From: a virus
Lineage: Duplodnaviria > Caudoviricetes
Reading direction: 5' to 3' (one strand)
Length of the DNA stretch: 44,332 bases
IMG/VR virus record: IMGVR_UViG_3300027640_000006
Coordinates: 1 to 44,332 of that record
Part shown: positions 5,045 to 10,697 of the stretch, piece after piece
How the letters are laid out: each line of letters opens with the position of its first letter
Numbering within the stretch: the stretch's first letter is position 1
Translations under genes and position numbers: made by a program
The notes under the pieces: model-generated
What the model was told of the DNA's origin: nothing
The model's database searches: none
The model's input: the letters and a program-made list of their open reading frames with translations, nothing else

Positions 5045-7636
5045 CTATATGAGCCTCACAGTGATCGGGATAGACCCAGCCGACATGGATGCCCCTGTGT
5101 TGTTAAACATCGAAATAAGGACCGTGCCCGTTCCCGTGACCTGTCCCTGGAAAAAGATTCGAGAGTACGAGCTTGATGAATTGACGGACACGAGAACAGC
5201 TTGACCAACGACGGCCCCGGTGACGGAATGACTGTAGGCCACCGAGGAGCCATTAGCGACAGCGGCATAAGAGTAGGTAAGCGTCGCTGAAATGGGACCG
5301 CCAGCGGCGCTTACTGCGGCCTGGACGAAAGCCGTTGTTGCAAGCGTCGTGTTGTTGGTTCCCAGCCCCTGCGTGACGCCATACGTTGCATTCGTGGCGT
5401 TCGTGGCCGAACCTGCCACTGTGGCGTAATCTGCACTTCCTCCAGCCGCTGGATACGAGGAGGGAGCCCCGGTAATTCTTGCCCAGGGAACAGAGCCAGC
5501 CGTCAGGACGCCATTCGCGAAATACCACTCCCAAGATGATCCATTGTGAATCCCCTGATAGGTGCTATGGATCATCAGGTACTTGCTCATCGTGTAGAAA
5601 TAGATGCCAGCATATCCGCCGGTCTGCCCGTTAATTTGAATCGACCCAAAAGACCCAGTGTTGCCGACTGAAAGAGCGTCAGTAATGCCGTAACCGGCCA
5701 GAGTCGTCGGTTTCGATGTCAAGGAAGCGAAGGTATGCGTGTGGCTCGATGGCGCAGCATCCGTGATTCCGAAGCCGATCAACGTGGTCGGCTTGCTTGT
5801 TAGTGAGCCAAAGGTGTGCGTGTGGCTCGCAGATGCAGCGTCGGTGATGCCGTAGCCGGCCAGCGTGGTCGGCTTAAGGGTCAGCGATTCAAAAGTGTGC
5901 GTGTGATTTGCCGGCGCCAGGTCATCCGTTATGCCGTATCCCCCCAGCGTCGTGGGCTTGCCCGTTAGCGAGGCGAAGCTGTGCGAGTGACTCAAAGGCG
6001 CGGCGTCGGTGATCCCGTACCCTGCCAGGGTCGTGGGTTTGTTGGACACCTCTGTTGCGAAATTGATCGAGATGGCCGTGATGCCGTACCCGCTCAGAGT
6101 GGTGGGCTTATCGGTGATCGATCCGAAAGTGTGCGTGTGGTTCGCTGCGGCTGCGTCGGTGATCCCGTAGCCAGCGCGAGTCGTCGGCTTGGACGTTAAC
6201 GAAGCAAAGTCGTGCGTGTGACTCGCCCCTGCGGCGTCGGTAATTCCATATCCGGCCAGCGTCGTTGGCTTGCCGGTGATGAACGTGAAAGCGTGGGTGT
6301 GGGCCAGCGGCGCTGCGTCGGTGATGCCATATCCCGCCAGAGTGGTCGGCTTGCCGGAGACTTCGGTATCCCACGCGACCGAGATCGCGGTGATTCCATA
6401 GCCGCTCAAGGTGTTGGGCTTATCGGTGATCGAGCCGAACGTGTGCGTGTGAGCAAGGGGGGCCGCGTCGGTGATGCCGTAGCCAATTAGAGTGGTCGGC
6501 TTGAACTGCAGATCGTCGAAGTTGTGCGTGTGGTTGCTATACGCAGCATCGGTGATGCCGTAGCCTCCGAGCGTGGTGGGGATCGCATTCAGCGCCGCGA
6601 AGTTGTGAGTGTGCCCAGAGAGCGCAGCATCCGTGATTCCGTAGCCAGCAAGGGTCGTCGGCTTGCCGGTGACTTCCGTGTCCCAGTCCACCGTTAAGAA
6701 GGTCAAGCCGAAGCCGATTCTGGAGTTCGGCTTATCGGTGATCGATCCCCAGGTATGCGTGTGGTTCAAAGGGGCGGCATCGGTAATCCCGTAGCCAAGC
6801 AAGGTGTCCGGCTTGAATAGCAGATCATCAAACTCATGAGTGTGATTCAGGCCAGCGGCGTCGGTGATTCCGTAGCCACCAAGCGTTGTCGGCTTCCCGG
6901 TGATGAAAGTGAAGGCGTGGGTGTGACTCAGCGGCGCGGCGTCGGTGATGCCATAGCCGGCGAGCGTCGTGGGCTTGCTGGCGATCTGCGCGAACGTGTA
7001 GTCGTTCGCCGCGGGCATTACGCGGCCAGCGCGATTATTCCATGCCTCGACTCCCTGCACGGCGGCGACCGTCGACATAAAGCCGAGATCCCATCTCTGG
7101 ATGTCGCCCTGGTAAACCAGTAGCCCGACGGCCCCGCTCGGCCAGTCCATGGCGCCACCAGATGGGGTGCGGATGCGCTCGGACGCGACCGCCGATGCGC
7201 TCTCGTGGTTGATCGTGGCAGTGAACGCCGTCGCGTTCTTCATCAGGATGATCCGGCCGTCGCGACCAGCATCCATGCCGTTCAACTGGAACAGGCCGGT
7301 CGCGCCGGTCAGGATGTGATAGTTCCCCGTCGGGTCCACATCGAGCGAGTTGTTCGCCCCGGCCACCACCGGAAGGGTTCGCGTGTTCTGGGTCACGAAG
7401 TCAGGCGGCACGCCCGTGGGCAGGGTCGTCACCGCCTGCGGACCATAGGTGACCCCAGCGCTTTCGACGCCGGCCGTATTAACGACTGTCACCGCGACAT
7501 GCACCAGCGTTGAAATCTCGCCCGTCACGAGGTCCTTCGTCACGGTAGTGATCGCATCGACGTTCAGCGGCTCAGCGTTGGTTGGCACCTTCGTTCGAGG
7601 CACCGGGGCGTAAAGATTCCTCGTCGCGGTCCTTGC
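5045..7636 (-). CDS. Tail fibre: 3' part of a split tail-tip/fibre gene
   Basis: 17 KPTTLAGYGITD-type repeats with HxH motifs and a C-terminal NTTLATTAFV fibre motif; no convincing own start; joins in frame to the 8625 gene when the inversion is reversed. Confidence 0.88.
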   Translation of the reverse strand, partial: ARTATRNLYAPVPRTKVPTNAEPLNVDAITTVTKDLVTGEISTLVHVAVTVVNTAGVESAGVTYGPQAVTTLPTGVPPDFVTQNTRTLPVVAGANNSLDVDPTGNYHILTGATGLFQLNGMDAGRDGRIILMKNATAFTATINHESASAVASERIRTPSGGAMDWPSGAVGLLVYQGDIQRWDLGFMSTVAAVQGVEAWNNRAGRVMPAANDYTFAQIASKPTTLAGYGITDAAPLSHTHAFTFITGKPTTLGGYGITDAAGLNHTHEFDDLLFKPDTLLGYGITDAAPLNHTHTWGSITDKPNSRIGFGLTFLTVDWDTEVTGKPTTLAGYGITDAALSGHTHNFAALNAIPTTLGGYGITDAAYSNHTHNFDDLQFKPTTLIGYGITDAAPLAHTHTFGSITDKPNTLSGYGITAISVAWDTEVSGKPTTLAGYGITDAAPLAHTHAFTFITGKPTTLAGYGITDAAGASHTHDFASLTSKPTTRAGYGITDAAAANHTHTFGSITDKPTTLSGYGITAISINFATEVSNKPTTLAGYGITDAAPLSHSHSFASLTGKPTTLGGYGITDDLAPANHTHTFESLTLKPTTLAGYGITDAASASHTHTFGSLTSKPTTLIGFGITDAAPSSHTHTFASLTSKPTTLAGYGITDALSVGNTGSFGSIQINGQTGGYAGIYFYTMSKYLMIHSTYQGIHNGSSWEWYFANGVLTAGSVPWARITGAPSSYPAAGGSADYATVAGSATNATNATYGVTQGLGTNNTTLATTAFVQAAVSAAGGPISATLTYSYAAVANGSSVAYSHSVTGAVVGQAVLVSVNSSSSYSRIFFQGQVTGTGTVLISMFNNTGASMSAGSIPITVRLI
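5675..6976 (-). repeat. Intragenic fibre repeat array (mostly 81-bp and 69-bp units)
   Basis: 17 units with 13 HxH motifs; 3+1 super-period of 104 aa. Confidence 0.9.

Positions 7637-10697: not shown

Follow-up and report, generated by a model that had tools for sequence, protein, structure and literature searches.

We identified a complete Mu-like transposable prophage of 44,080 bp, running from TG at 171 to CA at 44250, in IMG/VR virus record IMGVR_UViG_3300027640_000006 (Duplodnaviria; Caudoviricetes), whose whole sequence of 44,332 nucleotides was analyzed and is referred to here as the window. In the late region of this prophage, a segment of the tail-tip genes is inverted, and a baseplate-hub gene and a J-fibre gene are each split by it. 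The inversion is real, and a single illegitimate recombination event that inverted positions 7640 to 10439 and became fixed in a local lysogen lineage, leaving a tail-defective Mu-like prophage, is the probable explanation.

Within the minus-strand late region, 3 coupled frames lie on the plus strand, as had been noticed in an earlier reading of the window made without database searches (the sequence-only reading). These are the 3' piece of the baseplate-hub gene (7640 to 8065, +; 141 amino acids, aa), an intact gene, here gene B (8062 to 8628, +), and the 5' piece of a J-like central tail-tip gene (8625 to 10439, +; 605 aa), with an ATGA overlap between the hub piece and gene B and a TTGA overlap between gene B and the J piece. 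The remaining pieces of the 2 split genes lie outside the block on the minus strand: the hub 5' piece (10440 to 10559; 40 aa), whose start overlaps the tape-measure stop as TGATG at 10561 to 10557, and the 3' piece of the J-fibre gene (5045 to 7639; 864 aa), whose frame extends upstream solely into antisense hub sequence. The tape-measure gene (10559 to 14335, −; 1258 aa) is unbroken and matched phrog_10093 and a related provirus, G001. The hub 3' piece was phiJL001 gp84-N-like or gpL-like by language-model features and had an Atlas score of 0.97 for baseplate-hub N-terminal proteins, and the named clusters had PF09931 on 14-63% of their members. The J 5' piece matched phrog_31 ("central tail fiber J") and phrog_5616 and had J-like matches in 58 phage records, and the fibre 3' piece was supported by tail-fibre PHROG matches, its codon score, and KPTTLAGYGITDA-type repeats. 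Gene B is possibly a DUF2460-like distal tail protein, judging from a match (E 0.23) that we treat as a lead only; it has a coding-like codon score and now lies antisense to the late operon. The fibre repeats span 5676 to 6976 with periods of 81 nucleotides and ~312 nucleotides (the KPTTLAGYGITDA units), and sequencing run X1 differed from the window at 1 position, 5481.

The codon-usage score flipped strand at both junctions. The 4 junction-flanking pieces and gene B scored 0.23 to 0.38 bits per codon (0.11 over the whole repetitive fibre), and the 3 continuations read through the junctions as assembled scored −0.04 to −0.08, that is, as non-coding. These continuations are antisense sequence, and the flipped arrangement has no coding sequence for an alternative tip, which supports the earlier proposal that the tail tip is off and not swapped.

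We searched Logan contigs of 4 runs for either orientation of the block. The left junction was crossed in the window orientation in X1 (4000 to 7816), X2 (7495 to 8977), and X4 (7541 to 7707, 0 differences), and the right junction in X1 (9260 to 11932) and X2 (9978 to 12363), the contigs being records 1 and 4 of X1, 11 and 13 of X2, and 28 of X4. X1 and X2 are possibly the source sample of the window and so are not independent of it; X4 comes from another sample and study, possibly of the same campaign. The share of sampled words of the window held was 0.06 in X4 and 0.32 in X3, and X3 had no listed piece across either junction. The sequence-only reading had proposed counting junction-spanning reads in both orientations; carried out on contigs of ~3-10x depth, this check recovered the inverted junctions, and neither a collinear join nor any strand-changing joint between the junctions was found in 4 of 4 runs. 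The ENA and Logan assemblies carried a 131-aa fragment and a 690-aa chimera on 3 contigs, and no full-length version was present among 2 + 2 cluster members or among the protein search matches. The hub and J-fibre genes were split in the window and in every other assembly on record, the state of a defective prophage. Further low-depth contigs, ~90-98% identical to the window with shared differences, were found in X2, X3, and X4 over 7469 to 13982, none of those listed crossing a junction; they point to a sister phage strain.

The hub break was placed with a single homologue. A search with the hub 3' piece identified 2 proteins among 50 candidates, the phage's own fragment and a 182-aa protein (P0003, 52% identical) that spans the hub junction. 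The 40-aa 5' piece aligned with residues 1 to 40 of P0003 at 75% identity, and the 3' piece resumed at residue 41 with zero gap or overlap. On the strength of this alignment, the hub reconstruction is right. Annotated phages contained no match to P0003, and sequence searches of the PDB were uninformative. The AlphaFold model of P0003 puts the break at a hairpin turn (strands 37-39 and 42-44), but with a predicted local distance difference test (pLDDT) score of 39.8 it is too poor to be used as evidence.

The sequence-only reading had bounded the block by a 6-bp inverted motif, and both copies are present (GCGTCG at 7635 to 7640 and CGACGC at 10436 to 10441, both given on the plus strand). Reversal in the 6-bp register gave the 2 in-frame fusions that it had described, of 182 and 1468 aa, with the hub gene TGATG-coupled to the tape measure, and the register shifted by 3 bp that it had mentioned was also in frame (181 and 1469 aa; J was counted from 8658 in the register computation, and 11 codons were added for full length). 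In-frame reversal is uninformative by itself, because 520 of 1600 nearby breakpoint pairs left both frames open, yielding 374 products, and any clean inversion reverses in frame. The product with the top score against P0003 among these 374 (563.5) was that of segment 7640 to 10439 (+; equivalent cuts 7639-7641/10440-10438), with a shared CG placing the putative crossover cores at 7639 to 7640 (left, +) and 10439 to 10440 (right, +); the 6-bp register scored 552.5 with 1 residue inserted. The 3-bp-shifted register, with a shared sequence of just 2 bp (CG), was alone in tiling P0003 gap-free, so the 6-bp motif that the sequence-only reading had taken as the boundary is probably a by-product or a 3-bp scar and not the site of crossover. 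Of 20,000 blunt inversions simulated, 1.2% had a 6-bp inverted match reaching both junctions when in-frame registers were considered and 2.2% in any register, and 20% shared a core of at least 2 bp. At 1.2-2.2%, the 6-bp match exceeds chance only modestly, and it probably has a cause.

The J side of the reconstruction is less firmly shown. The J-fibre join is proposed mainly on geometry: once the block is reversed for the hub gene, the J piece reads in frame into 864 codons that lack any coding-like part upstream. A 1069-aa homologue of J (P0006, 52% over 90% of the J piece) runs past the J junction, its J match extending to profile position 1056 vs 977 for the J piece of the window, and it diverges from the window past the break. 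The J gene is likely cut inside a second fibronectin-III (FN3) domain. When the join was aligned pairwise to the second FN3 of P0006, the score did not exceed that of shuffled sequences, the X-linked halves scored no better than 36 of 300 controls against a 3-sequence FN3 profile, and the Atlas fn3 score was only 0.80; a motif in the fibre head, read by eye, is presumably the end of an FN3 domain. When the J tail and the fibre head were modelled as a complex, the score was 0.60 vs 0.01 for the best control, partner pLDDT was at least 54, and at least 60% of contacts agreed between runs. Of the solved complexes, 51 of 78 reached the mark used, as did 2 of 108 mismatched pairs; passes with scores of 0.60 or under came from 5 of those 78 and from every one of the 4 mismatches that passed. 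This predicted co-folding lends weak support to the join and may reflect likeness to solved FN3 domains.

We searched the prophage in six frames for recombinases that could act on the block. Serine resolvase/invertase (PF00239; 0 of 1 record, controls positive in 12 of 14 genomes), tyrosine integrase (PF00589; 0 matches, 14 of 14), large serine recombinase (PF07508; 0 of 1 record, 2 of 14), and IS110 transposase (PF02371; 0 matches, 6 of 14) were all without matches in the prophage. The sites were equally bare. Dyad arms around the cores matched at 2 to 6 of 12 positions, within background; alignments of the 2 sites to each other gave scores equalled by 21% and 49% of random pairs, so that a gapped likeness seen by eye is at chance level; the longest exact inverted match within 60 nucleotides was 7 bp, and at the junctions 6 bp at most, with no repeats of ~11 bp or longer; and folding of the sites was no better than that of shuffles (z −1.1 to +1.4). 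These results agree with the sequence-only reading in that no invertase is visible and that the arrangement is not Gin/gix. Cutting by the phage's own XamI-type enzyme was unsupported, neither junction being GTCGAC, which we take to be its specificity and which is present 22 times in the prophage. Intramolecular transposition of the Mu type was ruled out, with no phage end at either junction.

The single-event explanation would run as follows. Break repair or a template switch at 2-3 bp of microhomology would have inverted the block once; the 6-bp motif could most simply have come from a 3-bp duplication during the event beside a 3-bp microhomology, or else from a pre-existing Asp-Asp codon repeat. 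Late transcription would then yield a 40-aa hub stub joined to antisense sequence, gene B and the 5' part of J would go unread, and the fibre part would be without its start. On induction, transposition replication and lysis would continue and would give tail-less particles and no infectious progeny. Because the repressor, transposase, head, lysis, and XamI-type restriction-modification genes are unbroken, the element would keep immunity and transposition, and the restriction-modification pair and the repressor would give the host reasons for retaining it.

Several observations weigh against this explanation. The structural genes elsewhere are long unbroken frames, with 11 of the 15 late proteins tested matching G001, mostly near full length, and both prophage ends and the target duplication are undamaged, with no further lesion seen; this lack of further damage fits a recent accident and equally a working element. 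Nothing was lost in the event, which was reciprocal and added at most 3 bp, and only 1.2% of random inversions show a 6-bp inverted match in an in-frame register. Around the J crossover, exact 7-mer copies of the two halves of the hub crossover site lie ~52 bp to either side, an arrangement that 10 of 6000 random pairs matched (0.17%) and that was spotted post hoc; the outer half lies at 7580 to 7586 (+), ~52 bp outside the left junction, and the inner half at 10382 to 10388 (−), ~51 bp inside the right junction. The choice of register relies on 1 homologue, P0003. The orientation evidence comes from low-depth contigs, which drop minority orientations, the ENA and Logan assemblies may share 1 sample, and the recombinase search covered the prophage only, the host genome lying outside it.

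Of the 3 options left by the sequence-only reading, the one-off lesion is favoured, the assembly or amplification chimera is nearly excluded by the junction-crossing contigs, and the switch driven in trans was left without positive support. The same fixed lesion could have another cause, in which a site-specific recombinase of the host (a serine invertase or integrase, or an IS110-type enzyme) acted once, off target, at the shared CG. Serine recombinases make clean reciprocal exchanges with a 2-bp shared core, the geometry seen in the favoured register, but a core of that length is common among the simulated inversions, dyad arms are present at neither site, and the prophage has no invertase gene, so we regard this cause as unlikely. 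An assembly error or amplification chimera is very improbable. X1 and X2 possibly come from the source sample, and the library type is off record, but the identical left junction occurs in X4, contigs assembled separately from X1 and X2 run across both junctions, and the 2-6 bp of shared sequence is too short to mislead a k-mer assembler; the junction is thus neither confined to 1 library nor placed in a repeat longer than a k-mer. A chimera made during amplification is private to its sample and, as a rule, one-sided and accompanied by loss.

A programmed, reversible switch of infectivity, with a recombinase of the host or of a helper flipping the block in trans and the lysogen mostly in the OFF state, would account for a prophage that otherwise looks intact, for frames that are open whether the block is reversed at the CG core or at the 6-bp motif, and for a 6-bp match and paired 7-mers that exceed simple chance. 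Invertible regions without a nearby recombinase are reported (PMC9881135), and a minority orientation would be invisible in contigs of this depth. Against such a switch stand the lack of any collinear joint in the 4 runs and of a full-length protein on record, cuts that fall inside 2 probable folded domains, an OFF state that encodes nothing useful, and the extra residue that reversal at the 6-bp motif would add in a stretch matching P0003 gap-free; further, the block has no long inverted repeat or symmetric arms, vs the 34-bp repeats beside gin in Mu-type systems (PMC4406740). We consider the switch, like the recombinase misfire, unlikely, and slightly more so. A particular form of it, in which a trans-acting recombinase uses sites consisting of the CG core only, perhaps helped by the 7-mers ~52 bp (five helical turns) either side, so that the prophage is mostly non-infectious but transposition-competent and the hub and J-fibre genes are rebuilt in a minority of cells, is improbable. 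If it were true, this would be an infectivity ON/OFF switch without inverted repeats, unseen by repeat-based inverton searches, and would represent a form of phase variation new to phages, in which infectivity and not host range is toggled.

The Mu G segment is ~3 kb in size. Like it and its Gin-gix system (and that of SfMu), the present case involves a Mu-like phage, a ~3-kb inversion in the tail region, and 1 crossover in a fibre-type gene. The G segment has gin adjacent to it, 34-bp repeats, and 2 working gene pairs, S/U vs S'/U' (PMC4406740). Unlike it, the prophage has no invertase, 34-bp repeats, or alternative gene pair, a second essential gene is cut, and 1 orientation was seen; neither an adjacent serine invertase, nor symmetric inverted sites of 26-34 bp, nor a working alternative tip in each orientation was found. 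In the favoured register the two cuts share the dinucleotide CG, but 20% of the simulated inversions likewise share 2 bp or more.

Intragenic and gene-altering invertons end in coding sequence, their enzyme can be non-adjacent or unidentified, and tail-fibre genes are one of their target classes (PhaVa, 10.1101/2023.03.11.532203; PMC9881135; PMC13501310 for viral candidates). The ends of the prophage inversion likewise lie inside coding sequence. Invertons are defined in these sources by inverted repeats (examples of 11 bp and 14 bp; at least 44 bp for the "long" predictor) and by reads in both orientations, whereas the prophage block has no detectable inverted repeats and was found in the contigs in 1 orientation only. 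In defective prophages, 1 rearrangement can remove virion function while the repressor and cargo genes stay (PMC6379469). The prophage resembles such defective (cryptic) prophages in early decay, being a full prophage with 1 rearrangement and with repressor and cargo kept; unlike typical ones, it has a clean internal inversion and not a deletion, insertion-sequence insertion, or loss of an attachment site, and its ends and transposase are intact, so that it is not "grounded". Overall, it fits a defective prophage and operates differently from the Mu G segment. No account of this element, nor of a prophage tail switch without repeats, was found in the literature listings searched.

The prophage (171 to 44250) begins with TGTAAG at 171 and ends with CTTACA at 44245 to 44250, and it is flanked by a 5-bp target duplication, CTCGC, at 166 to 170 (+) and 44251 to 44255; such ends together with the duplication identify a Mu-like prophage. 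Early genes lie on the plus strand and late genes on the minus strand. Among 54 open reading frames scanned, Pfam matches included MuA, MuB, Gam, GemA, the repressor, a Mu-type portal, protease I, F, gp27, and gp36, along with a Phage_tube_2 tail tube; the DDE transposase, AAA+ MuB, and Mu-type head genes were represented by PF09299/PF02914, PF13401, PF06074, PF10123, PF04233, PF11985, and PF07030. The related Mu-like siphovirus-type provirus, G001 (loci L002 and L004), was the single relative obtained from the portal and tube searches (capsid 40%, portal 40%, terminase 36%, tube 34%), and its record stops inside the tape-measure gene and does not reach the tip genes. Searches for relatives' DNA across the tip genes gave 0 loci in viral contigs, with J, P0003, the J alignment, the tube, and the hub alignment as queries, and 0 loci in genome contigs, and metagenome contigs gave the window alone.

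Several further features were observed outside the inverted block. The contig ends on both sides in heptamer repeat arrays (1 to 170 and 44251 to 44332; GGGGCTA/GGGACTA, then CTCGCCC). A XamI-family endonuclease and N6-adenine methylase pair lies at 838 to 3374, at the far end of the late region, the position that gin and mom take in the Mu layout, and a second DNA methylase gene lies at 28097 to 28945. At 22914 to 24164, a Mu F head protein is joined to a PBECR2 nuclease-like domain, a fusion that resembles the MuF polymorphic toxins. A slippery A AAA AAC heptamer at 14699 to 14715 stands directly before the stop of a likely tail chaperone, and its −1 frame enters DUF1799; from its layout, this is probably a programmed frameshift of the lambda G/GT type. 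A degenerate 9-bp tandem repeat at 31494 to 31556, immediately upstream of the first late gene and beside a small excisionase-like helix-turn-helix gene (31585 to 31803), is possibly regulatory. A trypsin-like peptidase gene at the right end (42850 to 43737, −), of lower guanine-plus-cytosine content, is likely cargo.

For annotation, the inversion serves as a warning, as gene callers present the 690-aa chimera and the 131-aa fragment as real proteins. For the biology of Mu-like prophages, the single-event explanation would make this element a clean snapshot of early prophage decay, in which 1 inversion abolishes infectivity while immunity, transposition, and the restriction-modification pair remain.

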